Part shown: positions 4,701-34,453 of the stretch, in pieces
Layout: each line of letters starts with the position of its first letter
Position numbering within the stretch: the stretch's first letter is position 1
Position numbers and translations under genes: made by a program
DNA from: Nemertoderma westbladi
Lineage: Eukaryota; Animalia; Xenacoelomorpha
Length of the DNA stretch: 41,016 bases
Direction: 5' to 3'
NCBI GenBank assembly: GCA_032718475.1
Contig: JAUCBJ010003502.1
Location: 1-41,016 of the forward strand
The notes under the pieces: model-generated
Told to the model about the DNA's origin: nothing
Seen by the model: the letters and a program-made list of their open reading frames with translations, nothing else
The model's database searches: none

Positions 4701-4701
4701 G

Positions 4702-5715: not shown

Positions 5716-5720
5716 CTGTG

Positions 5721-8700
5721 AATTATTTAGTAGTAATTACACTGTGTTCTATCTCCAAGGCTGTCTCCGTATTATTTAGTAGTAATTACACTGTGTTCTA
5801 TCTCCAAGGCTGTCTCCGTATTATTTAGTAGTAATTACACTGTGTTCTATCTCCAAGGCTGTCTCCGAATTATTTAGTAGTAATTACACTGTGTTCTATC
5901 TCCAAGGCTGTCTCCGTATTATTTAGTAGTAATTACACTGTGTTCTATCTCCAAGGCTGTCTCCGTATTATTTAGTAGTAATTACACTGTGTTCTATCTC
6001 CAAGGCTGTCTCCGTATTATTTAGTAGTAATTACACTGTGTTCTATCTCCAAGGCTGTCTCCGTATTATTTAGTAGTAATTACACTGTGTTCTATCTCCA
6101 AGGCTGTCTCCGTATTATTTAGTAGTAATTACACTGTGTTCTATCTCCAAGGCTGTCTCCGTATTATTTAGTAGTAATTACACTGTGTTCTATCTCCAAG
6201 GCTGTCTCCGTATTATTTAGTAGTAATTACACTGTGTTCTATCTCCAAGGCTGTCTCCGTATTATTTAGTAGTAATTACACTGTGTTCTATCTCCAAGGC
6301 TGTCGACGTATTATTTAGTAGTAATTACACTGTGTTCTATCTCCAAGGCTGTCGACGTATTATTTAGTAGTAATTACACTGTGTTCTATCTCCAAGGCTG
6401 TCTCCGTATTATTTAGTAGTAATTACACTGTGTTCTATCTCCAAGGCTGTCGACGTATTATTTAGTAGTAATTACACTGTGTTCTATCTCCAAGGCTGTC
6501 TCCGTATTATTTAGTAGTAATTACACTGTGTTCTATCTCCAAGGCTGTCTCCGTATTATTTAGTAGTAATTACACTGTGTTCTATCTCCAAGGCTGTCGA
6601 CGTATTATTTAGTAGTAATTACACTGTGTTCTATCTCCAAGGCTGTCTCCGTATTATTTAGTAGTAATTACACTGTGTTCTATCTCCAAGGCTGTCTCCG
6701 TATTATTTAGTAGTAATTACACTGTGTTCTATCTCCAAGGCTGTCGACGTATTATTTAGTAGTAATTACACTGTGTTCTATCTCCAAGGCTGTCTCCGTA
6801 TTATTTAGTAGTAATTACACTGTGTTCTATCTCCAAGGCTGTCTCCGTATTATTTAGTAGTAATTACACTGTGTTCTATCTCCAAGGCTGTCTCCGTATT
6901 ATTTAGTAGTAATTACACTGTGTTCTATCTCCAAGGCTGTCTCCGTATTATTTAGTAGTAATTACACTGTGTTCTATCTCCAAGGCTGTCTCCGTATTAT
7001 TTAGTAGTAATTACACTGTGTTCTATCTCCAAGGCTGTCGACGTATTATTTAGTAGTAATTACACTGTGTTCTATCTCCAAGGCTGTCTCCGTATTATTT
7101 AGTAGTAATTACACTGTGTTCTATCTCCAAGGCTGTCTCCGTATTATTTAGTAGTAATTACACTGTGTTCTATCTCCAAGGCTGTCGACGTATTATTTAG
7201 TAGTAATTACACTGTGTTCTATCTCCAAGGCTGTCTCCGTATTATTTAGTAGTAATTACACTGTGTTCTATCTCCAAGGCTGTCTCCGTATTATTTAGTA
7301 GTAATTACACTGTGTTCTATCTCCAAGGCTGTCTCCGTATTATTTAGTAGTAATTACACTGTGTTCTATCTCCAAGGCTGTCGACGTATTATTTAGTAGT
7401 AATTACACTGTGTTCTATCTCCAAGGCTGTCTCCGTATTATTTAGTAGTAATTACACTGTGTTCTATCTCCAAGGCTGTCGACGTATTATTTAGTAGTAA
7501 TTACACTGTGTTCTATCTCCAAGGCTGTCTCCGTATTATTTAGTAGTAATTACACTGTGTTCTATCTCCAAGGCTGTCTCCGTATTATTTAGTAGTAATT
7601 ACACTGTGTTCTATCTCCAAGGCTGTCTCCGTATTATTTAGTAGTAATTACACTGTGTTCTATCTCCAAGGCTGTCGACGTATTATTTAGTAGTAATTAC
7701 ACTGTGTTCTATCTCCAAGGCTGTCTCCGTATTATTTAGTAGTAATTACACTGTGTTCTATCTCCAAGGCTGTCGACGTATTATTTAGTAGTAATTACAC
7801 TGTGTTCTATCTCCAAGGCTGTCTCCGTATTATTTAGTAGTAATTACACTGTGTTCTATCTCCAAGGCTGTCGACGTATTATTTAGTAGTAATTACACTG
7901 TGTTCTATCTCCAAGGCTGTCTCCGTATTATTTAGTAGTAATTACACTGTGTTCTATCTCCAAGGCTGTCGACGTATTATTTAGTAGTAATTACACTGTG
8001 TTCTATCTCCAAGGCTGTCTCCGTATTATTTAGTAGTAATTACACTGTGTTCTATCTCCAAGGCTGTCTCCGTATTATTTAGTAGTAATTACACTGTGTT
8101 CTATCTCCAAGGCTGTCTCCGTATTATTTAGTAGTAATTACACTGTGTTCTATCTCCAAGGCTGTCTCCGTATTATTTAGTAGTAATTACACTGTGTTCT
8201 ATCTCCAAGGCTGTCTCCGTATTATTTAGTAGTAATTACACTGTGTTCTATCTCCAAGGCTGTCGACGTATTATTTAGTAGTAATTACACTGTGTTCTAT
8301 CTCCAAGGCTGTCTCCGTATTATTTAGTAGTAATTACACTGTGTTCTATCTCCAAGGCTGTCTCCGTATTATTTAGTAGTAATTACACTGTGTTCTATCT
8401 CCAAGGCTGTCTCCGTATTATTTAGTAGTAATTACACTGTGTTCTATCTCCAAGGCTGTCGACGTATTATTTAGTAGTAATTACACTGTGTTCTATCTCC
8501 AAGGCTGTCTCCGTATTATTTAGTAGTAATTACACTGTGTTCTATCTCCAAGGCTGTCGACGTATTATTTAGTAGTAATTACACTGTGTTCTATCTCCAA
8601 GGCTGTCTCCGTATTATTTAGTAGTAATTACACTGTGTTCTATCTCCAAGGCTGTCTCCGTATTATTTAGTAGTAATTACACTGTGTTCTATCTCCAAGG

Positions 8701-11700
8701 CTGTCTCCGTATTATTTAGTAGTAATTACACTGTGTTCTATCTCCAAGGCTGTCGACGTATTATTTAGTAGTAATTACACTGTGTTCTATCTCCAAGGCT
8801 GTCTCCGTATTATTTAGTAGTAATTACACTGTGTTCTATCTCCAAGGCTGTCTCCGTATTATTTAGTAGTAATTACACTGTGTTCTATCTCCAAGGCTGT
8901 CTCCGTATTATTTAGTAGTAATTACACTGTGTTCTATCTCCAAGGCTGTCGACGTATTATTTAGTAGTAATTACACTGTGTTCTATCTCCAAGGCTGTCT
9001 CCGTATTATTTAGTAGTAATTACACTGTGTTCTATCTCCAAGGCTGTCGACGTATTATTTAGTAGTAATTACACTGTGTTCTATCTCCAAGGCTGTCTCC
9101 GTATTATTTAGTAGTAATTACACTGTGTTCTATCTCCAAGGCTGTCTCCGTATTATTTAGTAGTAATTACACTGTGTTCTATCTCCAAGGCTGTCGACGT
9201 ATTATTTAGTAGTAATTACACTGTGTTCTATCTCCAAGGCTGTCTCCGTATTATTTAGTAGTAATTACACTGTGTTCTATCTCCAAGGCTGTCTCCGTAT
9301 TATTTAGTAGTAATTACACTGTGTTCTATCTCCAAGGCTGTCGACGTATTATTTAGTAGTAATTACACTGTGTTCTATCTCCAAGGCTGTCTCCGTATTA
9401 TTTAGTAGTAATTACACTGTGTTCTATCTCCAAGGCTGTCTCCGTATTATTTAGTAGTAATTACACTGTGTTCTATCTCCAAGGCTGTCGACGTATTATT
9501 TAGTAGTAATTACACTGTGTTCTATCTCCAAGGCTGTCTCCGTATTATTTAGTAGTAATTACACTGTGTTCTATCTCCAAGGCTGTCTCCGTATTATTTA
9601 GTAGTAATTACACTGTGTTCTATCTCCAAGGCTGTCGACGTATTATTTAGTAGTAATTACACTGTGTTCTATCTCCAAGGCTGTCTCCGTATTATTTAGT
9701 AGTAATTACACTGTGTTCTATCTCCAAGGCTGTCTCCGTATTATTTAGTAGTAATTACACTGTGTTCTATCTCCAAGGCTGTCGACGTATTATTTAGTAG
9801 TAATTACACTGTGTTCTATCTCCAAGGCTGTCTCCGTATTATTTAGTAGTAATTACACTGTGTTCTATCTCCAAGGCTGTCTCCGTATTATTTAGTAGTA
9901 ATTACACTGTGTTCTATCTCCAAGGCTGTCTCCGTATTATTTAGTAGTAATTACACTGTGTTCTATCTCCAAGGCTGTCGACGTATTATTTAGTAGTAAT
10001 TACACTGTGTTCTATCTCCAAGGCTGTCTCCGTATTATTTAGTAGTAATTACACTGTGTTCTATCTCCAAGGCTGTCGACGTATTATTTAGTAGTAATTA
10101 CACTGTGTTCTATCTCCAAGGCTGTCTCCGTATTATTTAGTAGTAATTACACTGTGTTCTATCTCCAAGGCTGTCTCCGTATTATTTAGTAGTAATTACA
10201 CTGTGTTCTATCTCCAAGGCTGTCGACGTATTATTTAGTAGTAATTACACTGTGTTCTATCTCCAAGGCTGTCTCCGTATTATTTAGTAGTAATTACACT
10301 GTGTTCTATCTCCAAGGCTGTCTCCGTATTATTTAGTAGTAATTACACTGTGTTCTATCTCCAAGGCTGTCTCCGTATTATTTAGTAGTAATTACACTGT
10401 GTTCTATCTCCAAGGCTGTCGACGTATTATTTAGTAGTAATTACACTGTGTTCTATCTCCAAGGCTGTCTCCGTATTATTTAGTAGTAATTACACTGTGT
10501 TCTATCTCCAAGGCTGTCTCCGTATTATTTAGTAGTAATTACACTGTGTTCTATCTCCAAGGCTGTCTCCGTATTATTTAGTAGTAATTACACTGTGTTC
10601 TATCTCCAAGGCTGTCTCCGTATTATTTAGTAGTAATTACACTGTGTTCTATCTCCAAGGCTGTCTCCGTATTATTTAGTAGTAATTACACTGTGTTCTA
10701 TCTCCAAGGCTGTCGACGTATTATTTAGTAGTAATTACACTGTGTTCTATCTCCAAGGCTGTCTCCGTATTATTTAGTAGTAATTACACTGTGTTCTATC
10801 TCCAAGGCTGTCTCCGTATTATTTAGTAGTAATTACACTGTGTTCTATCTCCAAGGCTGTCGACGTATTATTTAGTAGTAATTACACTGTGTTCTATCTC
10901 CAAGGCTGTCTCCGTATTATTTAGTAGTAATTACACTGTGTTCTATCTCCAAGGCTGTCTCCGTATTATTTAGTAGTAATTACACTGTGTTCTATCTCCA
11001 AGGCTGTCTCCGTATTATTTAGTAGTAATTACACTGTGTTCTATCTCCAAGGCTGTCGACGTATTATTTAGTAGTAATTACACTGTGTTCTATCTCCAAG
11101 GCTGTCTCCGTATTATTTAGTAGTAATTACACTGTGTTCTATCTCCAAGGCTGTCTCCGTATTATTTAGTAGTAATTACACTGTGTTCTATCTCCAAGGC
11201 TGTCTCCGTATTATTTAGTAGTAATTACACTGTGTTCTATCTCCAAGGCTGTCTCCGTATTATTTAGTAGTAATTACACTGTGTTCTATCTCCAAGGCTG
11301 TCTCCGTATTATTTAGTAGTAATTACACTGTGTTCTATCTCCAAGGCTGTCGACGTATTATTTAGTAGTAATTACACTGTGTTCTATCTCCAAGGCTGTC
11401 TCCGTATTATTTAGTAGTAATTACACTGTGTTCTATCTCCAAGGCTGTCTCCGTATTATTTAGTAGTAATTACACTGTGTTCTATCTCCAAGGCTGTCGA
11501 CGTATTATTTAGTAGTAATTACACTGTGTTCTATCTCCAAGGCTGTCGCCGTATTATTTAGTAGTAATTACACTGTGTTCTATCTCCAAGGCTGTCTCCG
11601 TATTATTTAGTAGTAATTACACTGTGTTCTATCTCCAAGGCTGTCTCCGTATTATTTAGTAGTAATTACACTGTGTTCTATCTCCAAGGCTGTCGACGTA

Positions 11701-11805
11701 TTATTTAGTAGTAATTACACTGTGTTCTATCTCCAAGGCTGTCTCCGTATTTTTTAGTAGTAATTACACTGTGTTCTATCTCCAAGGCTGTCGACGTATT
11801 ATTTA
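5721..11805 (+). repeat. 49-bp minisatellite (~124 copies) made of the exon C acceptor junction
   Basis: Unit tattatttagtagtaattacactgtgttctatctccaaggctgtc[tc/ga]cg with period 49 (5761 to 5810). The last unit runs into exon C. Confidence 0.98.
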
Positions 11806-11978
11806 ACCTGCTGAAGTCCCACGATCGCGACTCTCGCTACATGGATCCTACGATAAAGTCGAAAGTGGCCCGTCTCTATTTACCTTTAGTTACCATAGCA
11901 ATGGAGGGCGTTAGTCAAATAGACGTCGCCGGTCGTCAACAATTCTATGCGCCGCTAGGAGGCGCACCACTATCGTCG
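11787..11978 (+). CDS. DOCK7: DOCK-C GEF exon C
   Basis: Acceptor ctccaag|gct is the last unit of the 49-bp array. Phase 0; reads AVDVLFNLLKSHDRDSRYMDPTIKSKVARLYLPLV..., resembling DOCK7 HNLLSSHDSDPRY...VAMLYLPL. Donor tcg|gttagt. Confidence 0.9.
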
Positions 11979-12173: not shown

Positions 12174-12311
12174 CTTATTAATCGATCGGTTGCTATGGCA
12201 ATAGCGGGTAGTAATAGTCATTCCGTAAGTGACCAATCAGGTGGGACTTCTGGTGCGATGCATTCAACAGATGATAAACTCAATAAGTTGCCTGAAGATA
12301 CCAGCAGGCAG
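12174..12311 (+). CDS. DOCK7: DOCK-C GEF exon D
   Basis: tttag|ctt acceptor. 46 codons, LINRSVAMAIAGSN...LPEDTSRQ, containing the DOCK-C VAMAIAG motif. Donor cag|gtaagt. Not in the ORF track. Confidence 0.88.
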
Positions 12312-12325
12312 GTAAGTTGCTATAG

Positions 12326-15300
12326 AGCAATCATAGAGGTCCGTCAGGAACTATAGAGATACCGGTAGGTTAGTTGGTGGACCAATCACAGAGGTCCGTC
12401 ACGAACTATAGAGATACCGGTAGGTTAGTTGGTGGACCAATCACAGAGGTCCGTCAGGAACTATAGAGATACCGGTAGGTTAGTTGGTGGACCAATCACA
12501 GAGGTCCGTCAGGAACTATAGACAGAGATACCGGCAGGTTAGTTGGTGGACTAATCACAGAGGTCCGTCAGGAACTATAGAGATACCGGCAGGTTAGTTG
12601 GTGGACTAATCACAGAGGTCCGTCAGGAACTATAGAGATACCGGTAGGTTAGTTGGTGGACTAATCACAGAGGTCCGTCAGGAACTATAGAGATACCGGT
12701 AGGTTAGTTGGTGGACCAATCACAAAGGTCCGTCACGAACTATAGAGATACCGGTAGGTTAGTTGGTGGACCAATCACAGAGGTCCGTCAGGAACTATAG
12801 AGATACGTAGGTTAGTTGGTGGACCAATCACAGAGGTCCGTCACGAACTATAGAGATACCGGTAGGTTAGTTGGTGGACCAATCACAGAAGTCCGTCACG
12901 AACTATAGACAGAGATACCGGCAGGTTAGTTGGTGGACCCATCACAGAGGTCCGTCAGGAACTATAGAGTTACCGGTAGGTTAGTTGGTGGACCAATCAC
13001 AGAGGTCCGTCACGAACTATAGATATACCGGTAGGTTAGTTGGTGGACCAATCACAGAAGTCCGTCACGAACTATAGACAGAGATACCGGCAGGTTAGTT
13101 GGTGGACTAATCACAGAGGTCCGTCAGGAACTATAGAGATACCGGTTCCGGTAGGTTAGTTGGTGGACCAATCACAGAAGTCCGTCACGAACTATAGACA
13201 GAGATACCGGCAGGTTAGTTGGTGGACCAATCACAGAGGTCCGTCAGGAACTATAGAGATACCGGTAAGTTAGTTGGTGGACCAATCACAGAGGTCCGTC
13301 AGGAACTATAGAGATACGAAGGTTAGTTGGTGGACCAAGCACAGAGGTCCGTCACGAACTATAGATATACCGGTAGGTTAGTTGGTGGACCAATCACAGA
13401 GGTCCGTTCCGAACTATAGAGATACCGGTAGGTTAGTTGGTGGACCAATCACAGAAGTCCGTCACGAACTATAGACAGAGATACCGGCAGGTTAGTTGGT
13501 GGACCAATCACAGAGGTCCGTTCCGAACTATAGAGATACCGGTAGGTTAGTTGGTGGACCAATCACAGAGGTCCGTCAGGAACTATAGAGATACCGTAGG
13601 TTAGTTGGTGGACCAATCACAGAGGTCCATTCCGAACTAGAGAGATACCGGTAGGTTAGTTGGTGGACCAATCACAGAAGTCCGTCACGAACTATAGACA
13701 GAGATACCGGCAGGTTAGTTGGTGGACCAATCACAGAGGTCCGTTCCGAACTATAGAGATACCGGCAGGTTAGTTGGTGGACCAATCACAGAGGTCCGTC
13801 AGGAACTATAGAGATACCGGTAGGTTAGTTGGTGGACCAATCACAGAGGTCCGTCAGGAACTATAGAGATACCGGTAGGTTAGTTGGTGGACCAATCACA
13901 GAGGTCCGTCAGGAACTATAGAGATACCGGTAGGGTAGTTGGTGGACCAATCACAGAGGTCCGTCACGAACTATAGAGATTCTGGCAGGTTAGTTCGTGG
14001 ACCAATCACAGAGGTCCGTCAGGCACTATAGAGATACCGGTAGGTTAGTTGGTGGACCAATCACAGAGGTCCGTCACGAATTATAGAGATACCGGTAGGT
14101 TAGTTGGTGGACCAATCACAGAAGTCCGTCACGAACTATAGGCAGAGATACCGGCAGGTTTCATTTATGACCAATCACAGAGGTCCGTCAGGAACTATAG
14201 AGATACCGACAGGTTAGTTGGTGGACCAATCACAGAGGTCCGTCAGGAACTATAGAGATACCGGTAGGTTAGTTGTTGGACCAATCACAGAAGTCCGTCA
14301 GTAACTATAGAGATACCGTAGGTTAGTTGGTGGACCAATCACAGAGGTCCGTCAGGAACTATAGAGATACCGACAGGTTAGTTGGTGGACCAATCACAGA
14401 GGTCCGTCAGGAACTATAGAGATACGTAGGTTAGTTGGTGGATCAATCACAGAGGTCCGTCACGAACTATAGAGATACGAAGGTTAGTTGGTGGACCAAT
14501 CACAGAGTTCCGTCAGGAACTATAGAGATACCGGTAGGTTAGTTAGTGGACCAATCACAGAGGTCCGTCAGGAACTATAGAGATACCGGTGGGTTAGTTG
14601 GTGGACCAATCACAGAGGTCCGTCAGGAACTATAGAGATACCGGTAGGGTAGTTGGTGGACCAATCACAGAGGTCCGTCACGAACTATAGAGATTCTGGC
14701 AGGTTAGTTCGTGGACCAATCACAGAGGTCCGTCAGGCACTATAGAGATACCGGTAGGTTAGTTGGTGGACCAATCACAGAGGTCCGTCAGGAACTATAG
14801 AGATACCGGTAGGGTAGTTGGTGGACCAATCACAGAGGTCCGTCACGAACTATAGAGATACCGGTAGGTTAGTTGGTGGACCAATCACAGAAGTCCGTCA
14901 CGAACTATAGAGATACCGGTAGGTTATTTGGTGGTGGACCAATCACAGAGGTCCGTTCCGAACTTTAGAGATACCGGTAGGTTAGTTGGTGGACCAATCG
15001 CAGAAGTCCGTCACGAACCATTGAGATACCGGTAGGTTAGTTGGTGGACCAATCACAGAAGTCCGTCACGAACTATAGACAGAGATACCGGCAGGTTAGT
15101 TGGTGGACCAATCACAGAGGTCCGTCAGGAACTATAGAGATACCGGTAGGTTAGTTGGTGGACCAATCGCAGAAGTCCGTCACGAACCATTGAGATACCG
15201 GTAGGTTAGTTGGTGGACCAATCACAGAAGTCCGTCACGAACTATAGACAGAGATACCGGCAGGTTAGTTGGTGGACCAATCACAGAGGTCCGTCAGGAA

Positions 15301-18300
15301 CTATAGAGATACCGTTAGGTTATTTGGTGGTGGACCAATCACAGAGGTCCGTTCCGAACTTTAGAGATACCGGTAGGGTAGTTGGTGGACCAATCACAGA
15401 AGTCCGTCACGAACTATAGACAGAGATACCGGCAGGTTAGTTGGTGGACCAATCACAGAGGTCCGTCACGAACTATAGAGATACCGGTAGGTTAGTTGGT
15501 GGACCAATCACATAAGTCCGTCACGAACTATAGAGATACCGGTACGTTAGTTGGTGGACCAATCACAGAAGTCCGTCACGAACTATAGACAGAGATACCG
15601 GCAGGTTAGTTGGTGGACCAATCACAGAGGTCCGTCAGGAACTATAGAGATACCGGTAGGGTAGTTGGTGGACCAATCGCAGAAGTCCGTCACGAACCAT
15701 TGAGATACCGGTAGGTTAGTTGGTGGACCAATCACAGAAGTCCGTCACGAACTATAGACAGAGATACCGGCAGGTTAGTTGGTGGACCAATCACAGAGGT
15801 CCGTCACGAACTATAGAGATACCGGTAGGTTAGTTGGTGGACCAATCACATAAGTCCGTCACGAACTATAGAGATACCGGTACGTTAGTTGGTGGACCAA
15901 TCACAGAAGTCCGTCACGAACTATAGACAGAGATACCGGCAGGTTAGTTGGTGGACCAATCACAGAGGTCCGTCAGGAACTATAGAGATACCGGTAGGTT
16001 AGTTGGTGGACCAATCACAGAAGTCCGTCAGGAACTATAGAGATACCGGTAGGTTAGTTGGTGGACCAATCACAGAGGTCCGTCAGGAACTATAGAGATA
16101 CCGGTAGGTTAGTTCGTGGACCAATCACAGAAGTCCGTCACGAACTATAGAGATACCGGTAGGTTAGTTGGTGGACCAATCACAGAGGTCCGTCAGGAAC
16201 TATAGAGATACCGGTAGGTTAGTTGGTGGACCAATCACAGAGGTCCGTCAGGAACTATAGAGATACCGGTAGGGTAGTTGGTGGACCAATCACAGAGGTC
16301 CGTCAGGAACTATAGAGATACCGGTAGGTTAGTTCGTGGACCAATCACAGAAGTCCGTCACGAACTTAGAGATACCGGTAGGTTAGTTGGTGGACCAATC
16401 ACAGAGGTCCGTCAGGAACTATAGAGGTACGTAGGTTAGTTGGTGGACCAATCACAGAGGTCCGTCAGGAACTATAGAGATACCGGTAGGTTAGTTGGTG
16501 GACCAATCACAGAGGTCCGTCAGGAACTATAGAGATACCGGTAGGTTAGTTGGTGGACCAATCACAGAGGTCCGTCAGGAACTATAGAGATACCGGTAGG
16601 TTAGTTCGTGGACCAATCACAGAAGTCCGTCACGAACTATAGAGATACCGGTAGGTTAGTTGGTGGACCAATCACAGAGGTCCGTCAGGAACTATAGAGA
16701 TACCGGTAGGTTAGTTGGTGGACCAATCACAGAGGTCCGTTCCGAACTATAGAGATACCGGTAGGTTAGTTGGTGGACCAATCACAGAGGTCCGTCAGGA
16801 ACTATAGAGGTACCGGTAGGTTAGTTGGTGGACCAATCACAGAGGTCCGTCAGGAACTATAGAGATACCGGTAGGTTAGTTGGTGGACCAATCACAGAGG
16901 TCCGTCAGGAACTATAGAGATACCGGTAGGTTAGTTGGTGGACCATTCTCAGAGGTCCGTCAGGAACTATAGACAGAGATACCGGCAGGTTAGTTGGTGG
17001 ACTAATCACAGAGGTCCGTCAGGAACTATAGAGATACCGGTAGGTTAGTTGGTGGACCAATCACAGAGGTCCGTCACGAACTATAGAGATACCGGTAGGT
17101 TAGTTGGTGGACCAATCACAGAGATCCGTCAGGAACTATAGAGATACCGGTAGGTTAGTTGGTGGACCAATCACAGAGGTCCGTCAGGAACTATAGAGAT
17201 ACCGGTAGGTTAGTTGGTGGACCAATCACAGAGGTCCGTCAGGAACTATAGAGATACCGGTAGGTTAGTTGGTGGACCAATCACATAAGTCCGTCACGAA
17301 CTATAGAGATACCGGTAGGTTAGTTGGTGGACCAATCACAGAGGTCCGTCACGAACTATAGAGATACCGGCAGGTTAGTTGTTGGACCAATCACAGAGGT
17401 CCGTCACGAACTATAGAGATACCGGCAGGTTAGTTGGTGGACCAATCACAGAGGTCCGTCAGGAACTATAGAGATACGTAGGTTAGTTGGTGGACCAATC
17501 ATAGAGGTCCTTCACGAACTATAGAGATACCGGTAGGTTAGTTGGTGGACCAATCACAGAGGTCCGTTCCGAACTATAGAGATACCGGCAGGTTAGTTGG
17601 TGGACCAATCACAGAGGTCCGTCAGGAACTATAGAGATACCGGTAGGTTAGTTGGTGGACCAATCACATAAGTCCGTCACGAACTATAGAGATACCGGTA
17701 GGTTAGTTGGTGGACCAATCACAGAAGTCCGTCACGAACTATAGAGATACCGGTAGGTTAGTTGGTGGACCAATCACATAAGTCCGTCACGAACTATAGA
17801 GATACCGGTAGGTTAGTTGGTGGACCAATCACAGAAGTCCGTCACGAACTATAGAGATACCGGCAGGTTAGTTGTTGGACCAATCACAGAAGTCCGTCAC
17901 GAACTATAGAGATACCGGCAGGTTAGTTGGTGGACCAATCACAGAGGTCCGTCAGGAACTATAGAGATACGTAGGTTAGTTGGTGGACCAATCATAGAGG
18001 TCCTTCACGAACTATAGAGATACCGGTAGGTTAGTTGGTGGACCAATCACAGAGGTCCGTTCCGAACTATAGAGATACCGGCAGGTTAGTTGGTGGACCA
18101 ATCACAGAGGTCCGTCAGGAACTATAGAGATACCGGTAGGTTAGTTGGTGGACCAATCACAGAGGTCCGTCAGGAACTATAGAGATACCGGTAGGTTAGT
18201 TGGTGGACCAATCACAGAAGTCCGTCAGGATCTAGAGATACGTAGGTTAGTTGGTCGACCAATCACAGAAGTCCGTCACGAACTATAGACAGAGATACCG

Positions 18301-21300
18301 ACAGGTTAGTTGGTAGACCAATCACAGAAGTCCGTTCCGAACTATAGAGATACCGGTAGGTTAGTTGGTGGACCAATCCCAGAAGTCCGTCACGAACTAT
18401 AGACAGAGATACCGACAGGTTAGTTGGTAGACCAATCACAGAGGTCCGTCAGGAACTATAGAGATACCGGTAGGTTAGTTGGTGGACCAATCACAGAGGT
18501 CCGTCAGGAACTATAGAGATACCGGTAGGTTAGTTGGTGGACCAATCACAGAAGTCCGTCAGGATCTATAGAGATACGTAGGTTAGTTGGTGGACCAATC
18601 ACAGAGGTCCGTCACGAACTATAGAGATACCGGTAGGTTAGTTGGTGGACCAATCACAAAGGTCCGTTCCGAACTATAGAGATACCGGTAGGTTAGTTGG
18701 GGGACCAATCACAGAGGTCCGTCAGGAACTATAGAGATACGTAGGTTAGTTGGTGGACCAATCACAGAGGTCCGCCACGAACTATAGAGATACCGGTAGG
18801 TTAGTTGGTGGACCAATCACAAAGGTCCGTTCCGAACTATAGAGATACCGGTAGGTTAGTTGGGGGACCAATCACAGAGGTCCGTCAGGAACTATAGAGA
18901 TACGTAGGTTAGTTGGTGGACCAATCACAGAGGTCCGTCAGGAACTATAGAGATACCGATAGGTTAGTTGGTGGACCAATCACAGAGGTCCGTCAGGAAG
19001 TATAGAGATACCGGTAGGGTAGTTGGTGGACCAATCACAGAGGTCCGTCAGGAACTATAGAGATACCGGTAGGGTAGTTGGTGGACCAATCACAGAGGTC
19101 CGTCAGGAACTATAGAGATACCGGTAGGGTAGTTGATGTACCAATCACAGAGGTCCGTCACGAACTATAGACAGAGATACCGGCAGGTTAGTTGGTGTAC
19201 CAATCACAGAGGTCCGTCAGGAACTATAGAGATACCGGTAGGTTAGTTGGTGGACCAATCACAGAGGTCCGTCAGGAACTATAGAGATACCGGTAGGGTA
19301 GTTGGTGGACCAATCACAGAGGTCCGTCACAAACTATAGAAATACCGGTAGGTTAGTTCGTGGACCAATGACAGAGGTCCGTCACGAACTATAGACAGAG
19401 ATACCGGCAGGTTAGTTGGTGTACCAATCACAGAGGTCCGTCAGGAAATATAGAGATACCGGTAGGTTAGTTGGTGGACCAATCACAGAGGTCCGTCAGG
19501 AACTATAGAGATACTGGTAGGGTAGTTGGTGGACCAATCACAGAGGTCCGTCACGAACTATAGACAGAGATACCGGCAGGTTAGTTGGTGTACCAATCAC
19601 AGAGGTCCGTCAGGAACTATAGAGATACCGGTAGGTTAGTTGGTGGACCAATCACAGAGGTCCGTCAGGAACTATAGATATACCGGTAGGGTAGTTGGTG
19701 GACCAATCACAGAGGTCCGTCACGAACTATAGAGATACCAGTAGGTTAGTTCGTGGACCAATCACAGAGGTCCGTCATGAACTATAGACAGAGATACCGG
19801 CAGGTTAGTTGGTGTACCAATCACAGAGGTCCGTCAGGAACTATAGAGATACTGGTAGGGTAGTTGGTAGACCAATCACAGAGGTCCGTCACGAACTATA
19901 GACAGAGATACCGGCAGGTTAGTTGGTGTACCAATCACAGAGGTCCGTCAGGAACTATAGAGATACCGGTAGGTTAGTTGGTGGACCAATCACAGAGGTC
20001 CGTCAGGAACTATAGAGATACCGGTAGGTTAGTTCGTGGACCAATCACAGAGGTCCGTCACGAACTATAGACAGAGATACCGGCAGGTTAGTTGGTGTAC
20101 CAATCACAGAGGTCCGTCAGGAACTATAGAGATACCGGTAGGTTAGTTGGTGGACCAATCACAGAGGTCCGTCAGGAACTATAGAGATACCGGTAGGGTA
20201 GTTGGTGGACCAATCACAGAGGTCCGTCACGAACTATAGAGATACCGGTAGGTTAGTTGGTGGACCAATCACAGAGGTCCGTCACGAACTATAGAATTAC
20301 CGGTAGGTTAGTTGGTGGACCAATCAAAGAGGTCCGTTCCGAACTATAGAGATACCGGTAGGTTAGTTGGTGGACCAATCACAGAAATCCGTCACGAACT
20401 ATAGACAGAGATACCGGCAGGTTAGTTCGTGGACCAATCACAGAAGTCCGTCACGAACTATAGTCAGAGATACCGGCAGGTTAGTTTATGGACCAATCAC
20501 AGAGGTCCGTCAGGAACTATAGAGATACCGGTAGGTTAGTTGGTGGACCAATCACAGAGGTCCGTCACGAACTATAGAGATACCGGTAGGTTAGTTGGTG
20601 GACCAATCACAGAGGTCCGTCATGAACTATAGAGATACGTAGTTTAGTTGGTGGACCAATCACAGAAGTCCGTCAGGAACTATAGAGATACCGGTAGGTT
20701 AGTTGGTGGACCAATCACAGAAGTCCGTCAGGATCTATAGAGATACGTAGGTTAGTTGGTCGACCAATCACAGAAGTCCGTCACGAACTATAGACAGAGA
20801 TACCGACTGGTTAGTTGGTAGACCAATCACAGAGGTCCGTTCCGAACTATAGAGATACCGGCAGGTTTGTTGGTGGACCAATCCCAGACGTCCGTCACGA
20901 ACTATAGACAGAGATACCGACAGGTTAGTTGGTAGACCAATCACAGAGGTCCGTCAGGAACTATAGAGATACCGGTAGGTTAGTTGGTGGACCAATCACA
21001 GAGGTCCGTCAGGAACTATAGAGATACCGGTAGGTTAGTTGGTGGACCAATCACAGAAGTCCGTCAGGATCTATAGAGATACGTAGGTTAGTTGGTGGAC
21101 CAATCACAGAGGTCCGTCACGAACTATAGAGATACCGGTAGATTAGTTGGTGGACCAATCACAGAGGTCCGTTCCGAACTATAGAGATACCGGTAGGTTA
21201 GTTGGGGGACCAATCACAGAGGTCCGTCAGTAACTATAGAGATACGTAGGTTAGTTGGTGGACCAATCACAGAGGTCCGTCACGAACTATAGAGATACCG

Positions 21301-24300
21301 GTAGGTTAGTTGGTGGACCAATCACAGAGGAGGTCCGTTCCGAACTATAGAGATACCGGCAGGTTAGTTGGTGGACCAATCACAGAGGTCCGTCAGGAAC
21401 TATAGAGATACCGATAGGTTAGTTGGTGGACCAATCACAGAGGTCCGTCAGGAAGTATAGAGATACCGGTAGGGTAGTTGGTGGACCAATCACAGAGGTC
21501 CATCAGGAACTATAGATATACCGGTAGGGTAGTTGGTGGACCAATCACAGAGGTCCGTCACGAACTATAGAGATACCAGTAGGTTAGTTCGTGGACCAAT
21601 CACAGAGGTCCGTCATGAACTATAGACAGAGATACCGGCAGGTTAGTTGGTGTACCAATCACAGAGGTCCGTCAGGAACTATAGAGATACTGGTAGGGTA
21701 GTTGGTAGACCAATCACAGAGGTCCGTCACGAACTATAGACAGAGATACCGGCAGGTTAGTTGGTGTACCAATCACAGAGGTCCGTCAGGAACTATAGAG
21801 ATACCGGTAGGTTAGTTGGTGGACCAATCACAGAGGTCCGTCAGGAACTATAGAGATACCGGTAGGTTAGTTGGTGGACCAATCACAGAGGTCCGTCACG
21901 AACTATAGAGATACCGGTAGGTTAGTTCGTGGACCAATCACAGAGGTCCGTCACGAACTATAGACAGAGATACCGGCAGGTTAGTTGGTGTACCAATCAC
22001 AGAGGTCCGTCAGGAACTATAGAGATACCGGTAGGTTAGTTGGTGGACCAATCACAGAGGTCCGTCAGGAACTATAGAGGCACCGGTAGGGTAGTTGGTG
22101 GACCAATCACAGAGGTCCGTCACGAACTATAGAGATACCGGTAGGTTAGTTGGTGGACCAATCACAGAGGTCCGTCACGAACTATAGAATTACCGGTAGG
22201 TTAGTTGGTGGACCAATCAAAGAGGTCCGTTCCGAACTATAGAGATACCGGTAGGTTAGTTGGTGGACCAATCACAGAAATCCGTCACGAACTATAGACA
22301 GAGATACCGGCAGGTTAGTTCGTGGACCAATCACAGAAGTCCGTCACGAACTATAGTCAGAGATACCGGCAGGTTAGTTTATGGACCAATCACAGAGGTC
22401 CGTCAGGAACTATAGAGATACCGGTAGGTTAGTTGGTGGACCAATCACAGAGGTCCGTCACGAACTATAGAGATACCGGTAGGTTAGTTGGTGGACCAAT
22501 CACAGAGGTCCGTCATGAACTATAGAGATACGTAGTTTAGTTGGTGGACCAATCACAGAAGTCCGTCAGGAACTATAGAGATACCGGTAGGTTAGTTGGT
22601 GGACCAATCACAGAAGTCCGTCAGGATCTATAGAGATACGTAGGTTAGTTGGTCGACCAATCACAGAAGTCCGTCACGAACTATAGACAGAGATACCGAC
22701 AGGTTAGTTGGTAGACCAATCACAGAGGTCCGTTCCGAACTATAGAGATACCGGCAGGTTAGTTGGTGGACCAATCCCAGACGTCCGTCACGAACTATAG
22801 ACAGAGATACCGACAGGTTAGTTGGTAGACCAATCACAGAGGTCCGTCAGGAACTATAGAGATACCGGTAGGTTAGTTGGTGGACCAATCACAGAGGTCC
22901 GTCAGGAACTATAGAGATACCGGTAGGTTAGTTGGTGGACCAATCACAGAAGTCCGTCAGGATCTATAGAGATACGTAGGTTAGTTGGTGGACCAATCAC
23001 AGAGGTCCGTCACGAACTATAGAGATACCGGTAGGTTAGTTGGTGGACCAATCACAGAGGTCCGTTCCGAACTATAGAGATACCGGTAGGTTAGTTGGGG
23101 GACCAATCACAGAGGTCCGTCAGGAACTATAGAGATACGTAGGTTAGTTGGTGGACCAATCACAGAGGTCCGTCACGAACTATAGAGATACCGGTAGGTT
23201 AGTTGGTGGACCAATCACAGAGGAGGTCCGTTCCGAACTATAGAGATACCGGCAGGTTAGTTGGTGGACCAATCACAGAGGTCCGTCAGGAACTATAGAG
23301 ATACCGATAGGTTAGTTGGTGGACCAATCACAGAGGTCCGTCAGGAAGTATAGAGATACCGGTAGGGTAGTTGGTGGACCAATCACAGAGGTCCATCAGG
23401 AACTATAGAGATACCGGTAGGGTAGTTGGTGGACCAATCACAGAGGTCCTTCAGGAACTATAGAGATACCGGTAGGGTAGTTGGTGGACCAATCACAGAG
23501 GTCCGTCACGAACTATAAACAGAGATACCGGCAGGTTAGTTGGTGTACCAATCACAGAGGTCCGTCAGGAACTATAGAGATACCGGTAGGTTAGTTGGTG
23601 GACCAATCACAGAGGTCCGTCAGGAACTATAGAGATACCGGTAGGGTAGTTGGTGGACCAATCACAGAGGTCCGTCACAAACTATAGAAATACCGGTAGG
23701 TTAGTTCGTGGACCAATGACAGAGGTCCGTCACGAACTATAGACAGAGATACCGGCAGGTTAGTTGGTGTACCAATCACAGAGGTCCGTCAGGAAATATA
23801 GAGATACCGGTAGGTTAGTTGGTGGACCAATCACAGAGGTCCGTCAGGAACTATAGAAATACCGGTAGGTTAGTTCGTGGACCAATGACAGAGGTCCGTC
23901 ACGAACTATAGACAGAGATACCGGCAGGTTAGTTGGTGTACCAATCACAGAGGTCCGTCAGGAAATATAGAGATACCGGTAGGTTAGTTGGTGGACCAAT
24001 CACAGAGGTCCGTCACGAACTATAGACAGAGATACCGGCAGGTTAGTTGGTGTACCAATCACAGAGGTCCGTCAGGAACTATAGAGATACCGGTAGGTTA
24101 GTTGGTGGACCAATCACAGAGGTCCGTCAGGAACTATAGAGATACCGGTAGGGTAGTTGGTGGACCAATCACAGAGGTCCGTCACAAACTATAGAGATAC
24201 CAGTAGGTTAGTTCGTGGACCAATCACAGAGGTCCGTCACGAACTATAGACAGAGATACCGGCAGGTTAGTTGGTGTACCAATCACAGAGGTCCGTCAGA

Positions 24301-25297
24301 AACTATAGAGATACTGGTAGGGTAGTTGGTAGACCAATCACAGAGGTCCGTCACGAACTATAGACAGAGATACCGGCAGGTTAGTTGGTGTACCAATCAC
24401 AGAGGTCCGTCAGGAACTATAGAGATACCGGTAGGTTAGTTGGTGGACCAATCACAGAGGTCCGTCAGGAACTATAGAGATACCGGTAGGGTAGTTGGTG
24501 GACCAATCACAGAGGTCCGTCACGAACTATAGAGATACCGGTAGGTTAGTTCGTGGACCAATCACAGAGGTCCGTCACGAACTATAGACAGAGATACCGG
24601 CAGGTTAGTTGGTGTACCAATCACAGAGGTCCGTCAGGAACTATAGAGATACCGGTAGGTTAGTTGGTGGACCAATCACAGAGGTCCGTCAGGAACTATA
24701 GAGATACCGGTAGGTTAGTTCGTGGACCAATCACAGAGGTCCGTCACGAACTATGCAGAGATACCGGCAGGTTAGTTGGTGGACCAATCACAGAGGTCCG
24801 TCAGGAACTATAGAGATACCGGTAGGGTAGTTGGTGGACCAATCACAGAGGTCCGTCACGAACTATAGAGATACCGGTAGGTTAGTTGGTGGACCAATCA
24901 CAGAGGTACGTCACGAACTATAGAGATACCGGTAGGTTAGTTGGTGGACCAATCAAAGAGGTCCGTTCCGAACTATAGAGATACCGGTAGGTTAGTTGGT
25001 GGACCAATCACAGAAATCCGTCACGAACTATAGACAGAGATACCGGCAGGTTAGTTTATGGACCAATCACAGAGGTCCGTCAGGAACTATAGAGATACCG
25101 GCAGGTTAGTTCGTGGACCAATCACAGAAGTCCGTCACGAACTATAGTCAGAGATACCGGCAGGTTAGTTTATGGACCAATCACAGAGGTCCGTCAGGAA
25201 CTATAGAGATACCGGTAGGTTAGTTGCTCAGACCAATCACAGACGTCCGTCACGAACTATAGAGATACCGGTAGGTTAGTTGGTGGACCAATCACAG
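12326..25297 (+). repeat. ~55-bp minisatellite (~230 copies, with 53/54/59-bp variants) starting just after the exon D donor
   Basis: Unit gaccaatcacagaggtccgtcaggaactatagagataccggtaggttagttggtg with period 55 (12361 to 12416). Many point variants and a recurrent +gaca insertion. Confidence 0.98.
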
Positions 25298-25384: not shown

Positions 25385-25523
25385 TTTCTGCTGTGCTTCC
25401 TGTGGGTACTGAAGAGTGTTGCAGTCGATACTTTATACGAATGGTGGACGCAGCTGTCTAGCAGTCGTCTTCTTGTGATACTAAACCTACTGGACCTATG
25501 TGTCAGTTGTTTCGAATATAAAG
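25385..25523 (+). CDS. DOCK7: DOCK-C GEF exon E
   Basis: ttccag|ttt acceptor. Reads FLLCFLWVLKSV...LLDLCVSCFEYK(G), resembling DOCK7 LLICLLWVLKN...LCVSCFEYKG. Donor g|gtaggt. Confidence 0.92.
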
Positions 25524-29234: not shown

Positions 29235-29391
29235 GTCCTGTACGCGCTCAAGCTTCGGCCTCATTGTACCTGCTGATGCGACAGAATTTTGAAATCGGAA
29301 ATAATTTCGCGAGGGTAAAGATGCAGGTAACTATGTCGCTGTCCAGTCTAGTTGGCACCTCAAAATCCTTCAATGAGGATTACCTTAGAAG
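29235..29391 (+). CDS. DOCK7: DOCK-C GEF exon I
   Basis: cgtag|gt acceptor. Reads [52 protein letters not shown], near-identical to the conserved DOCK6/7/8 block. Donor ag|gtgagt. Not in the ORF track. Confidence 0.95.
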
Positions 29392-29496
29392 GTGAGTTTT
29401 TAAAGTCGTTTTTTTGTTTCCTATTTTTCTGTCTCTTTTTTTATGTTTCCTAATTTCGCTTATCCATTTTTTATGTTTCCTAATTTCGCTTTTCAG

Positions 29497-29679
29497 GTCG
29501 TTAAAGACGATTCTTATCTACGCAGAAGACGACGATGACCTCAAAGGAACCACGTTCCCAGATCAGGTTCGCGATCTCGTGTTTAACCTTCACATGATCC
29601 TCTCCGATACGGTTAAAATGAAGGAGTTCCAGGAAGACCCTGAGATGCTTCTTGATCTTATGTATAGAATAGCTAAAGG
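29497..29679 (+). CDS. DOCK7: DOCK-C GEF exon J
   Basis: tttcag|g acceptor. Reads [13 protein letters not shown]...[42 protein letters not shown]. Donor gg|gtaagg. Confidence 0.95.
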
Positions 29680-29794: not shown

Positions 29795-29985
29795 ATACCA
29801 GACATCGCCGGACCTCAGGCTAACCTGGTTGCAGAACATGGCCGAGAAACACAAGGAGAGAGGCAACTGGGCCGAGGCGGCTCAATGCTTCACCCACGCG
29901 GCGGGGTTGGTCAGCGAGTACTTGAGTATGCTGGAAGGGAGGGAATACTGGCCCGTCGGATGTGTAGACTTCACTAATGTTTCAG
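29795..29985 (+). CDS. DOCK7: DOCK-C GEF exon K (start of DHR-2/DOCKER domain)
   Basis: tttag|a acceptor. Reads [20 protein letters not shown]...[22 protein letters not shown]...[11 protein letters not shown]. Donor cag|gtgagt is the first unit of the 30-bp array. The expected next exon (NVLEES...) was not found in the window. Confidence 0.94.
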
Positions 29986-32900
29986 GTGAGTGGAGCGAGT
30001 TCACTAAAGTTTCAGGTGAGTGAAGCGAGTTCGCTAATGTTTCAGGAGAGGAGCGAGTTCGCTAATGTTTCAGGTGAGTGAAGCGAGTTCGGTAATGTTT
30101 CAGGTGAGTGAAGCGAGTTCGCTAATGTTTCAGGAGTGGAGCGAGTTCACTAATGTTTCAGGTGAGTGGAGCGAGTTCGCGAATGTTTCAGGAGTGGAGC
30201 GAGTTCGCTAATGTTTCAGGTGAGTGGAGCGAGTTCACTAATGTTTCAGGAGTGGAGCGAGTTCACTAATGTTTCAGGTGGGTGAAGCGAGTTCGCTAAT
30301 GTTTCAGGTGAGTGGAGCGAGTTCACTAATGTTTCAGGTGAGTGGAGCGAGTTCACTAATGTTTCAGGTGGGTGGAGCGAGTTCGCTAATGTTTCAGGTG
30401 AGTGAAGCGAGTTTGCTAATGTTTCAGGTAAGTGGAGCGAGTTCGCTAATGTTTCAGGTGAGTGGAGCGAGTTTGCTAACGTTTCAGGAGTGGAGCGAGT
30501 TCACTAATGTTTCAGGTGGGTGAAGCGAGTTCGCTAATGTTTCAGGTGAGTGGAGCGAGTTCGCTAATGTTTCAGGAGTGGAGCGAGTTCACTAATGTTT
30601 CAGGTGAGTGAAGCGAGTTCGCTAATGTTTCAGGTGGGTGGAGCGAGTTCGCTAATGTTTCAGGAGTGGAGCGAGTTCACTAATGTTTCAGGTGAGTGGA
30701 GCGAGTTCACTAATGTTTCAGGAGTGGAACGAGTTCGCCAATGTTTCAGGTGAGTGAAGCGAGTTCGCTAATGTTTCAGGTGAGTGAAGCGAGTTCGCTA
30801 ATGTTTCAGGTGAGTGGAGCGAGTTCGATAATGTTTCTGGAGTGGAGCGAGTTCACTAATGTTTCAGGTGAGTGGAGCGAGTTCGCTGTTTCAGGAGTGG
30901 AGCGAGTTCGCTAATGTTTCAGGTGAGTGGAGCGAGTTCACTAATTTTTCAGGAGTGGAACGAGTTCGCTAATGTTTCAGGTGAGTGAAGCGAGTTCGCT
31001 AATGTTTCAGGTGAGTGGAGCGAGTTCGCTAATGTTTCAGGTGGGTGAAGCGAGTTCGCTAATGTTTCAGGTGAGTGGAGCGAGTTCGCTAATGTTTCAG
31101 GAGTGGAGCGAGTTCACTAATGTTTCAGGTGAGAGAAGCGAGTTCGCTAATGTTTCAGGTGGGTGGAGCGAGTTCGCTAATGTTTCAGGAGTGGAGCGAG
31201 TTCACTAATGTTTCAGGTGAGTGGAGCGAGTTCACTAATGTTTCAGGAGTGGAACGAGTTCGCTAATGTTTCAGGTGAGTGAAGCGAGTTCGCTAATGTT
31301 TCGGGTGAGTGAAGCGAGTTCGCTAATGTTTCAGGTGAGTGGAGCGAGTTCGATAATGTTTCTGGAGTGGAGCGAGTTCACTAATGTTTCAGGTGAGTGG
31401 AACGAGTTCGCTGTTTCAGGAGTGGAGCGAGTTCACTAATGTTTCAGTAGTGGAGCGAGTTCACTAATGTTTCAGGTGGGTGAAGTGAGTTCGCTAATGT
31501 TTCAGGTGAGTGGAGCAAGTTCACTAATGTTTCAGGTGAGTTGAGCGAGTTCACTAATGTTTCAGGAGTGGAGCGAGTTCGCTAATGTTTCAGGTGAGTG
31601 GAGCGAGTTCACTAATGTTTTAGGTGAGTGGAGCGAGTTAACTAATGTTTTAGGTGGGTGAAGCGAGTTCGCTAATGTTTCAGGAGTGGAGCGAGTTCGC
31701 TAATGTTTCAGGTGAGTGGAGCGAGTTAACTAATGTTTCAGGTGGGTGAAGCGAGTTCGCTAATGTTTCAGGAGTGGAGCGAGTTCGCTAATGTTTCAGG
31801 TGAGTGGAGCGAGTTAACTAATGTTTCAGGTGGGTGGAGCGAGTTCGCTAATGTTTCAGGTGAGTGGAGCGAGTTTGCTAACGTTTCAGGAGTGGAGCGA
31901 GTTCACTAATGTTTCAGGTGGGTGAAGCGAGTTCGCTAATGTTTCAGGTGAGTGGAGCGAGTTCGCTAATGTTTCAGGAGTGGAGCGAGTTCACTAATGT
32001 TTCAGGTGAGTGAAGCGAGTTCGCTAATGTTTCAGGTGGGTGGAGCGAGTTCGCTAATGTTTCAGGAGTGGAGCGAGTTCACTAATGTTTCAGGTGAGTG
32101 GAGCGAGTTCACTAATGTTTCAGGAGTGGAACGAGTTCGCCAATGTTTCAGGTGAGTGAAGCGAGTTCGCTAATGTTTCAGGTGAGTGAAGCGAGTTCGC
32201 TAATGTTTCAGGTGAGTGGAGCGAGTTCGATAATGTTTCTGGAGTGGAGCGAGTTCACTAATGTTTCAGGTGAGTGGAGCGAGTTCGCTGTTTCAGGAGT
32301 GGAGCGAGTTCGCTAATGTTTCAGGTGAGTGGAGCGAGTTCACTAATTTTTCAGGAGTGGAACGAGTTCGCTAATGTTTCAGGTGAGTGAAGCGAGTTCG
32401 CTAATGTTTCAGGTGAGTGGAGCGAGTTCGCTAATGTTTCAGGTGGGTGAAGCGAGTTCGCTAATGTTTCAGGTGAGTGGAGCGAGTTCGCTAATGTTTC
32501 AGGAGTGGAGCGAGTTCACTAATGTTTCAGGTGAGAGAAGCGAGTTCGCTAATGTTTCAGGTGGGTGGAGCGAGTTCGCTAATGTTTCAGGAGTGGAGCG
32601 AGTTCACTAATGTTTCAGGTGAGTGGAGCGAGTTCACTAATGTTTCAGGAGTGGAACGAGTTCGCTAATGTTTCAGGTGAGTGAAGCGAGTTCGCTAATG
32701 TTTCGGGTGAGTGAAGCGAGTTCGCTAATGTTTCAGGTGAGTGGAGCGAGTTCGATAATGTTTCTGGAGTGGAGCGAGTTCACTAATGTTTCAGGTGAGT
32801 GGAACGAGTTCGCTGTTTCAGGAGTGGAGCGAGTTCACTAATGTTTCAGTAGTGGAGCGAGTTCACTAATGTTTCAGGTGGGTGAAGTGAGTTCGCTAAT

Positions 32901-34453
32901 GTTTCAGGTGAGTGGAGCAAGTTCACTAATGTTTCAGGTGAGTTGAGCGAGTTCACTAATGTTTCAGGAGTGGAGCGAGTTCGCTAATGTTTCAGGTGAG
33001 TGGAGCGAGTTCACTAATGTTTTAGGTGAGTGGAGCGAGTTAACTAATGTTTCAGGTGGGTGAAGCGAGTTCGCTAATGTTTCAGGAGTGGAGCGAGTTC
33101 GCTAATGTTTCAGGTGAGTGGAGCGAGTTAACTAATGTTTCAGGTGGGTGAAGCGAGTTCGCTAATGTTTCAGGAGTGGAGCGAGTTCGCTGTTTCAGGA
33201 GTGGAGCGAGTTCGCTAATGTTTCAGGTGAGTGGAGCGAGTTCACTAATTTTTCAGGAGTGGAACGAGTTCGCTAATGTTTCAGGTGAGTGAAGCGAGTT
33301 CGCTAATGTTTCAGGTGAGTGGAGCGAGTTCGCTAATGTTTCAGGTGGGTGAAGCGAGTTCGCTAATGTTTCAGGTGAGTGGAGCGAGTTCGCTAATGTT
33401 TCAGGAGTGGAGCGAGTTCACTAATGTTTCAGGTGAGAGAAGCGAGTTCGCTAATGTTTCAGGTGGGTGGAGCGAGTTAACTAATGTTTCAGGTGGGTGA
33501 AGCGAGTTCGCTAATGTTTCAGGAGTGGAGCGAGTTCGCTAATGTTTCAGGTGAGTGGAGCGAGTTCACTAATGTTTCAGGAGTGGAACGAGTTCGCTAA
33601 TGTTTCAGGTGAGTGAAGCGAGTTCGCTAATGTTTCGGGTGAGTGGAGCGAGTTAACTAATGTTTCAGGTGGGTGAAGCGAGTTCGCTAATGTTTCAGGA
33701 GTGGAGCGAGTTCGCTAATGTTTCAGGTGAGTGGAGCGAGTTCACTAATGTTTCAGGAGTGGAACGAGTTCGCTAATGTTTCAGGTGAGTGAAGCGAGTT
33801 CGCTAATGTTTCGGGTGAGTGGAGCGAGTTAACTAATGTTTCAGGTGGGTGAAGCGAGTTCGCTAATGTTTCAGGAGTGGAGCGAGTTCGCTAATGTTTC
33901 AGGTGAGTGGAGCGAGTTAACTAATGTTTCAGGTGGGTGAAGCGAGTTCGATAATGTTTCAGGTGAGTGGAGCCAGTTCACTAATGTTTCAGGTGGGTGG
34001 AGCGAGTTCGCTTATGTTTCAGGTGAGTGGAGCGAGTTCGCTTATGTTTCAGGTGAGTGGAGCGAGTTCACTAATGTTTCAGGTGAGTGGAGCGAGTTCA
34101 CTAATGTTTCAGGAGTGGAACGAGTTCGCTAATGTTTCAGGTGAGTGAAGCGAGTTCGCTAATGTTTCGGGTGAGTGGAGCGAGTTAACTAATGTTTCAG
34201 GTGGGTGAAGCGAGTTCGCTAATGTTTCAGGAGTGGAGCGAGTTCGCTAATGTTTCAGGTGAGTGGAGCGAGTTAACTAATGTTTCAGGTGGGTGAAGCG
34301 AGTTCGATAATGTTTCAGGTGAGTGGAGCCAGTTCACTAATGTTTCAGGTGGGTGGAGCGAGTTCGCTTATGTTTCAGGTGAGTGGAGCGAGTTCGCTTA
34401 TGTTTCAGGTGAGTGGAGCGAGTTCGCTAATGTTTCAGGTGGGTGAGTCGAGT
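29970..34453 (+). repeat. 30/26-bp minisatellite (~150 copies) made of the exon K donor junction
   Basis: Unit ttc[a/g]ctaatgtttcaggtgagtggagcgag plus a 26-bp variant lacking 4 bases after tttcag. The first unit is the last 16 nt of exon K plus its donor. Confidence 0.98.

Follow-up and report, generated by a model that had tools for sequence, protein, structure and literature searches.

The locus analysed here raises the question of how three very large tandem arrays came to lie on the exon borders of a single gene, and of how the gene is spliced across them. The window (the whole stretch of DNA that was analysed, 41,016 nucleotides of contig JAUCBJ010003502.1 from Nemertoderma westbladi) carries on its + strand a model of 11 exons (A to K) that is open across 718 codons and has GT-AG borders at all 10 introns. 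Judged by its predicted protein, the gene is of the DOCK6/7/8 type, with exon A matching DOCK7 and DOCK6 (36-50% identity), exon C matching DOCK6 and exon K corresponding to the start of DHR-2 lobe A in a profile match; the low identity suggests an animal distant from the vertebrates. A preliminary description had placed three large, mutually unrelated arrays (about 6.1, 13.0 and 4.5 kb) on borders of these exons, and the TRF coordinates and units agree with that account. The three units are indeed unrelated to one another (local scores 8-12), and one shared element behind them was ruled out for this lack of similarity. The exons and repeats are as follows, a slash marking the exon-intron border and X4 being one of the sequencing runs described further on.

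1856..2259, + strand: DOCK exon A, first exon found in the window (DOCK7/DOCK6 matches)
2942..3150, + strand: DOCK exon B, donor paired with the exon C acceptor over array 1
5722..11805, + strand: array 1, 49-bp unit x 124.2, 97% matches (TRF)
11787..11978, + strand: DOCK exon C, acceptor in the last array 1 unit; DOCK6 match
12174..12311, + strand: DOCK exon D, donor at 12312 (CAG/GTAAGT)
12293..25297 (TRF from 12328), + strand: array 2, 55-bp unit x 233.2, 90% matches, diverged first unit starting within exon D
25385..25523, + strand: DOCK exon E, acceptor 110 nt past the last array 2 decoy donor; loose ends in X4
27648-27819, + strand: DOCK exon F, without a large array
28280-28424, + strand: DOCK exon G, without a large array
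28647-28872, + strand: DOCK exon H, without a large array
29235-29391, + strand: DOCK exon I, without a large array
29409..29496, + strand: small repeat of a pyrimidine tract, 30 bp x about 3, adjoining the exon J acceptor; upstream copies without AG
29497-29679, + strand: DOCK exon J, without a large array
29795-29985, + strand: DOCK exon K, donor at 29986
29970..34454, + strand: array 3, 30/28-bp unit x 153.1, 87% matches (TRF)

The 49-bp unit of array 1 had been read as an acceptor followed by the first bases of exon C, and it consists precisely of the last 31 nt of intron B-C and the first 18 nt of exon C, the latter being supplied in the gene by the last unit of the array. All 124 of 124 units match the true acceptor between -31 and +6, 35 of them over the full 49 nt, and 123 decoy acceptors lie upstream of the true one; the exon B donor is located 2.6 kb before the array. 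At the other end of the locus, the array 3 unit comprises the last 16 nt of exon K and the first 14 nt of the following intron. Among the 148 units parsed, GT is present in 107 and lost in 41, and the GT decoy donors number 106; the true-type CAG/GTGAGT occurs in 68 of the 148 and the stronger CAG/GTAAGT in one. The unit is thus a junction unit as claimed, although its description as an exact copy was overstated, with only 10 of 143 units reproducing the junction over 30 nt.

Array 2 takes up nearly all (about 99%) of intron D-E, which is 13,073 nt long, and the exon E acceptor stands 87 nt beyond its end, in other sequence. GT is found in 202 of the 231 units parsed, nearly always as GTTAGT and mostly as AG/GTTAGT, as against GTAAGT at the true exon D donor. 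GTTAGT is a live donor, since exon C's own donor, TCG/GTTAGT, is used in the X4 contig. In 196 of 202 cases the decoys share 7-8 of 9 positions with the donor consensus, and the true donors of the gene share 6-9 of 9. The unit had been interpreted as a diverged copy of the exon D end and donor. Aligned in register, the two agree in 18 of 24 columns with one 4-nt gap, a score reached by 1 of 753 background windows when anchored in this way; without anchoring the score is weak (attained in 44 of 5000 shuffles and, in the background, by 60 of 3459 windows), and the donor of exon C does equally well against the unit. A derivation of array 2 from the exon D junction accordingly has modest support and is not proven.

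Six sequencing runs were listed, none with an RNA label on record, and four of them (X1 to X4) contain the stretch; X1 may be the source run, and the records assign X2 and X3 to another sample. In X1, X2 and X3, unique contigs pass from exons into array units, and the summed depth of the units exceeds that of the flanks by a factor of about 20 to several hundred; as summed contig depth, which varies among the three runs, this documents presence and not copy number. The arrays could in principle be assembly artefacts or greatly inflated, as exact lengths come from the window assembly alone and no spanning read or contig was found among those examined. This is extremely improbable, however, given the high unit depth and the exon-to-unit contigs in the runs of the second sample, and the structured variants and diverged edges, which are unlike collapse or chimera errors. 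The data support the conclusion that the arrays are real and present beyond the source assembly. Over 2.5 kb, 31 substitution rows and 6 indel rows, most of them intronic, separate the other runs from the window; flank sequence derived from X3 was not found in the window, and the array 1 unit had no matches in metagenome contigs.

The splicing outcome is visible in X4, which is labelled "DNA?" though its contig is spliced: a single contig of 2,559 nt lacks intron cover and skips six introns at GT..AG. In this contig the end of exon B immediately precedes 11787, position 12311 is followed at once by the start of exon E, and 29985 by a DOCK-like continuation (exon L, located past the window end); the five joints among exons F-K are present. 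The exon-adjacent sites are therefore used at all three array junctions (B-C, D-E and K-L), the assembled transcript taking the last acceptor of array 1 and the first donors of arrays 2 and 3. In doing so the transcript passes over 123 identical acceptors and 202 + 106 GT decoy donors, and the idea that hundreds of decoys are ignored is borne out for the dominant X4 transcript. This RNA evidence amounts to one contig from one run, a kind of record that drops rare forms and leaves minor isoforms invisible; no decoy isoform occurs among the X4 contigs examined (one contig).

Use of a decoy would lead to a stop in 430 of 431 cases (123/123 in array 1, 202/202 in array 2 and 105/106 in array 3). 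It had been claimed that the reading frame survives only with the exon-proximal copy, which holds throughout arrays 1 and 2 and fails at one array 3 decoy, the second donor at 30016, which adds 10 codons without a stop and keeps the frame open. As most decoy use ends in a stop, decay could conceal a leak. The extension of the arrays into the intron only, previously offered as evidence, loses its force: any junction-spanning array looks like this once the exon-adjacent site is used, and it is because that site is used that the arrays appear one-sided.

The decoys are not weaker than the gene's true sites in donor consensus scoring, and masking by structure was not seen, predicted accessibility being like that of true sites for the 16-17 decoys sampled per array. 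A first-come choice is insufficient for array 1, because its 123 identical acceptors are transcribed first, and the observed joins most likely reflect, for the array 1 acceptor, pairing across the exon (exon definition). The locus thus constitutes a natural experiment in splice-site choice, in which the real acceptor is taken only after 123 others with the same sequence between -31 and +6 have been passed, and in which the assembled transcript disregards an array 2 decoy donor that stands a mere 110 nt before the acceptor of exon E, a distance equal to the length of short introns in this gene. Both facts argue for exon definition in an animal with otherwise short introns. If sites were paired across the intron, the favoured ones would be the first array 1 decoy acceptor and the last array 2 decoy, the one 110 nt from exon E.

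The preliminary description had not recognised the arrangement as a known system, yet the available parts of several papers place repeats of this class, under the names "mirage" minisatellite or junction-spanning VNTR, in the published record (PMC3087553, PMC1557585, PMC3902484). In amphioxus, the sections seen of two of them describe mirages in Adh3, the globins BflGb6 and BflGb9, TnC and PGBD5 that span exon-intron borders and leave splicing undisturbed (PMC3087553, PMC3902484). The DOCK arrays share with these, as far as the accounts go, a border-spanning unit on the donor or acceptor side, directly in arrays 1 and 3 and through the diverged first unit in array 2; a splice signal repeated in the units (123 acceptors, 202 and 106 GT donors); and normal mRNA made from the authentic site, seen here in one X4 contig at 3/3 junctions. 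The concerted turnover of the interior, with edge units excluded, is also found: the amphioxus repeats are described in the same partial accounts as having a homogenised interior and diverging edges, and here exact blocks of up to 1,219 nt occur within arrays and the edges of array 2 are diverged, those of array 1 not. The difference lies in scale, as well as in the animal and the gene, the BflGb6 mirage having 3-6 units in the excerpted text (PMC3087553) and the present arrays 124-233 units over 4.5-13 kb.

For donors, there is a human parallel. The accessible portion of one paper lists donor-spanning VNTRs in F7 IVS7 (37 bp, 5-9 copies), 6-16 (25 pseudo-sites) and CBS IVS13 (15-20), together with LMNB2 and PDGF, the donor-side cases overall having 5-26 copies, and reports that the choice of the most upstream donor was shown experimentally for F7 (PMC1557585). 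Arrays 2 and 3 resemble these, on that portion, in having the first unit over the donor, pseudo-donors following it and the most upstream site winning, but hold about ten times more copies; array 1 is their mirror image on the acceptor side, where a first-come choice would pick the wrong site. In 6-16 and CBS, according to the same portion, there is leakage into the nearest pseudo-sites, which is to be compared with a single X4 contig here in which minor forms are invisible. In human segmental duplications, the part consulted of another study counts 27 intron modifications by exon-intron boundary tandem repeats that lengthened introns (PMC2812944); these have a mean of about 4 units and 160 bp, and the study, in that part, is not a test of junction enrichment. 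The DOCK arrays are unusually large members of a known repeat class, the largest among the cases consulted, for which the copy numbers seen in print are 3-26, and what is new in them is mainly size.

It could be asked whether the arrays also created their introns, as in the Rogers model (outlined in the available text of PMC3087553), under which an AG/GT proto-splice site duplicated in tandem gives rise to an intron. In keeping with that outline, the units of arrays 2 and 3 hold AG/GT, and the array-bearing introns lie at positions absent from the relatives examined: the B-C intron is missing at the same position in 8/8 relatives scored and the D-E intron in 10/10, while the common intron near K-L lies about 10 nt upstream in relatives. 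However, the array-free introns H-I, I-J and J-K are also oddly placed, being absent in 31/33, 33/36 and 35/43 relatives; intron remodelling in the lineage has been general. The two ends of each intron do not come from one duplicated AG/GT seed. The far end of each of the three lies outside its array in unrelated sequence, and for this reason the arrays did not create these introns and must have lengthened existing ones.

The most probable origin, in our view, is that of three independent mirage minisatellites which arose as short DNA duplications, were tolerated and were enlarged by ordinary repeat turnover. In a first step, slippage or microhomology-mediated duplication would have copied a seed of 30-55 bp over each junction. 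Perfect short homology at the ends of an array is the usual mark of such events, and a perfect 8-bp microhomology is common to both ends of array 1; a clean mark of this kind is seen only there and not at arrays 2 and 3. In a second step, whose outcome is seen in X4, the dominant mRNA takes the first donor or the last acceptor, and tolerance may follow from this: for arrays 2 and 3 first-come choice would be enough, as in F7, the array 1 acceptor would most likely be fixed through exon definition with the exon C donor 192 nt away, and any leak to decoys, ending in a premature stop in nearly every case, would probably be degraded. In a third step, suggested by the internal structure, unequal exchange and block duplication would have enlarged and homogenised the interior, leaving the edge units to diverge. 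The arrays hold exact internal repeated blocks of 929, 619 and 1,219 nt, the last being a duplication within array 3 at a lag of 1,402, and the two array 1 variants are arranged in multi-unit blocks, with one adjacent GA-GA pair (P 5e-5, shuffle), as expected from unequal exchange. The 8-bp microhomology and the 1.2-kb block duplication likely point to DNA-level birth and turnover, and no function would be required for the arrays. Somatic length instability has reportedly been observed in the amphioxus Adh3 mirage. Edge divergence, with undiverged edge units in array 1, suggests that the arrays are of different ages, 1 being the youngest and 2 the oldest.

The positions of the repeats sit less easily with chance followed by turnover. 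All four repeats with a unit of at least 20 bp between exons A and K (the three arrays and the small repeat before exon J) are within 17 nt of a junction, and the four other loci in the window with repeats of that unit size have at most 3 copies each. Under a simple null, 3/3 large arrays on junctions have a probability of 8e-5 to 2e-4 for the window as a whole and of 7e-4 to 1.6e-3 for introns A-K, values that are post hoc, the window having been picked for the pattern. As a control, 80 DOCK loci of other eukaryotes were grouped into 57 clusters, of which 44 had inferred introns (200 introns, 125 kb); the 13 clusters without an inferred intron were left out, unconserved coding gaps may account for some of the inferred introns, exon edges are approximate and short contigs break at large arrays. 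No junction excess was found in these loci, where 2 of 23 repeats with a unit of at least 15 bp were flagged against 1.6 expected. A flag at 2534 in locus L060 was judged an edge error; a true donor-spanning array (28 bp x 16) lies in the same locus at 11363-11804 and is one of the two control arrays with at least 5 copies. Junction ends with arrays thus number 3/22 here against 1 confirmed in 400 in the other loci. No genome-wide test of junction enrichment of repeats was found in the literature searched, and the part seen of PMC10078293 contains nothing on junction-spanning units.

Targeted expansion, its recombination variant included, appears fairly unlikely. One form of it, a process linked to transcription or splicing (R-loop slippage, a stalled polymerase or pre-mRNA-templated repair) that seeds or expands junction repeats in the lineage, would account for the 3/3 placement (null 1e-4 to 1e-3), for the large size of junction arrays next to small non-junction ones and for the 3/22 against 1/400; it is nevertheless unlikely, as the window was selected for the pattern, the units carry intron sequence and no exon-exon joint and therefore had no spliced mRNA as template, neither the microhomology nor the block duplications require RNA, and the 23 control repeats show no junction excess. 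A bias acting on DNA only, in which the exons of a polymorphic animal form homologous islands shared by its haplotypes and recombinational repair slips at the limits of these islands, so that duplications and their expansion cluster at exon edges, would cover donor and acceptor cases without RNA and agrees with the mostly intronic differences between runs and window; it is purely inferred, also predicts arrays at the edges of conserved non-coding blocks, and appears quite unlikely. Very improbable is a use for the decoys themselves, either as recursive sites removing long introns stepwise or as a tunable NMD leak setting DOCK levels by array length. Array 3 units reading TTTCAG/GTGAGT with a branch-like motif 39 nt upstream, the stops behind 430/431 decoys and the employment of nearest pseudo-sites by human 6-16 and CBS, in the part available of PMC1557585, would fit it, but the single X4 contig contains no decoy isoform, array 1 units read AG/GC without donor consensus and 41/148 array 3 units have no GT. 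Moreover, in arrays 2 and 3 the candidate acceptor has 4 extra AGs within 45 nt, compared with 0-2 at true acceptors, and none of the scored units offers a clean recursive acceptor (a pyrimidine tract free of upstream AGs) before YAG/GT; judged by these motifs, recursive splicing via the arrays appears disfavoured.

A broader proposal, which we regard as speculative and rather doubtful, is that a genome-wide process in this lineage seeds minisatellites specifically on splice junctions or inflates them to kilobase size, that a gene whose other introns measure 100-700 nt was thereby forced onto strict exon definition, and that introns have grown in large part through mirages, which may also underlie the remodelled positions. 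If an excess at junctions were true genome-wide, splicing signals would be linked to repeat expansion and intron growth.

Searches for homologues with the nested gene and exon C gave no matches. The array 1 units also differ from the coding copy in what they would encode, with Ala-Val-Ser in 88/124 units against Ala-Val-Asp in the exon. The notion that the units keep an ancestral allele was considered and rejected: Ser occupies this site in 17/21 mostly vertebrate homologues, yet in 0/15 further loci, and Asp is found in 3 of those 15, all from one cluster.

A two-base variant of the coding unit of array 1, the 49-bp minisatellite at the exon C acceptor (5722-11805), also occurs in 34 intronic units, so that the first codons of exon C participate in the turnover of the array. 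Runs X3, which is filed under another sample, and X4, in which the contig is spliced, also have this coding variant. In run X1, possibly the source of the assembly, the contig that lies between array 1 and array 2 (11800-12364) has a depth of 18.9, about half the 35.2 of exons F-K. At the exon K donor, a run X3 contig (window 29970-30031) leads from units of array 3 into sequence not present in the window, which could correspond to the edge of another allele, to an insertion within the array or to a copy located elsewhere.

Junction repeats other than the three large arrays were also found, one of them in the DOCK gene of another animal (locus L060), where a donor-spanning array of 16 units of 28 bp follows a DHR-2 exon (11363-11804). 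Within the window, a short repeat terminates at the exon J acceptor, with the AG missing from its upstream copies, and mobile-element-like sequences are also present:

29409-29496, 30-bp repeat of about 3 copies, filling most of the 105-nt intron I-J
3580-5720, minus strand, broken reading frames, non-LTR retroelement-like, inside a DOCK intron
25870-27545, plus strand, broken reading frames, non-LTR retroelement-like, inside a DOCK intron
34460-34720 and 38350-38620, element of ~250 bp that begins like a tRNA, present in two similar copies

The broken frames, judging from their motifs, are presumably fragments of non-LTR retroelement reverse transcriptases, and one of the two extends right up to the left border of array 1. 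The ~250-bp element is likely a SINE, and one copy immediately follows array 3.

When exons B-K were compared with 80 DOCK loci of other eukaryotes, the majority of their intron positions were absent from the relatives scored. The intron holding array 3, between exon K and the next exon (L), lies ~10 nt downstream of a position widespread among these relatives.

Two intronless genes (35443-36393, minus strand) are nested antisense within the DOCK intron 3' of array 3:

36067-36393, minus strand, UPF0184 (bublin-like) ORF
35443-35940, minus strand, TMEM188/CNEP1R1 ORF
36753-36869, perfect (AAAGT)x23 microsatellite upstream of both genes

The 126-nt gap between the ORFs contains AATAAA and then an acceptor-like stretch, whose final AG is 7 nt ahead of the second ATG; the arrangement is operon-like and would be compatible with trans-splicing.
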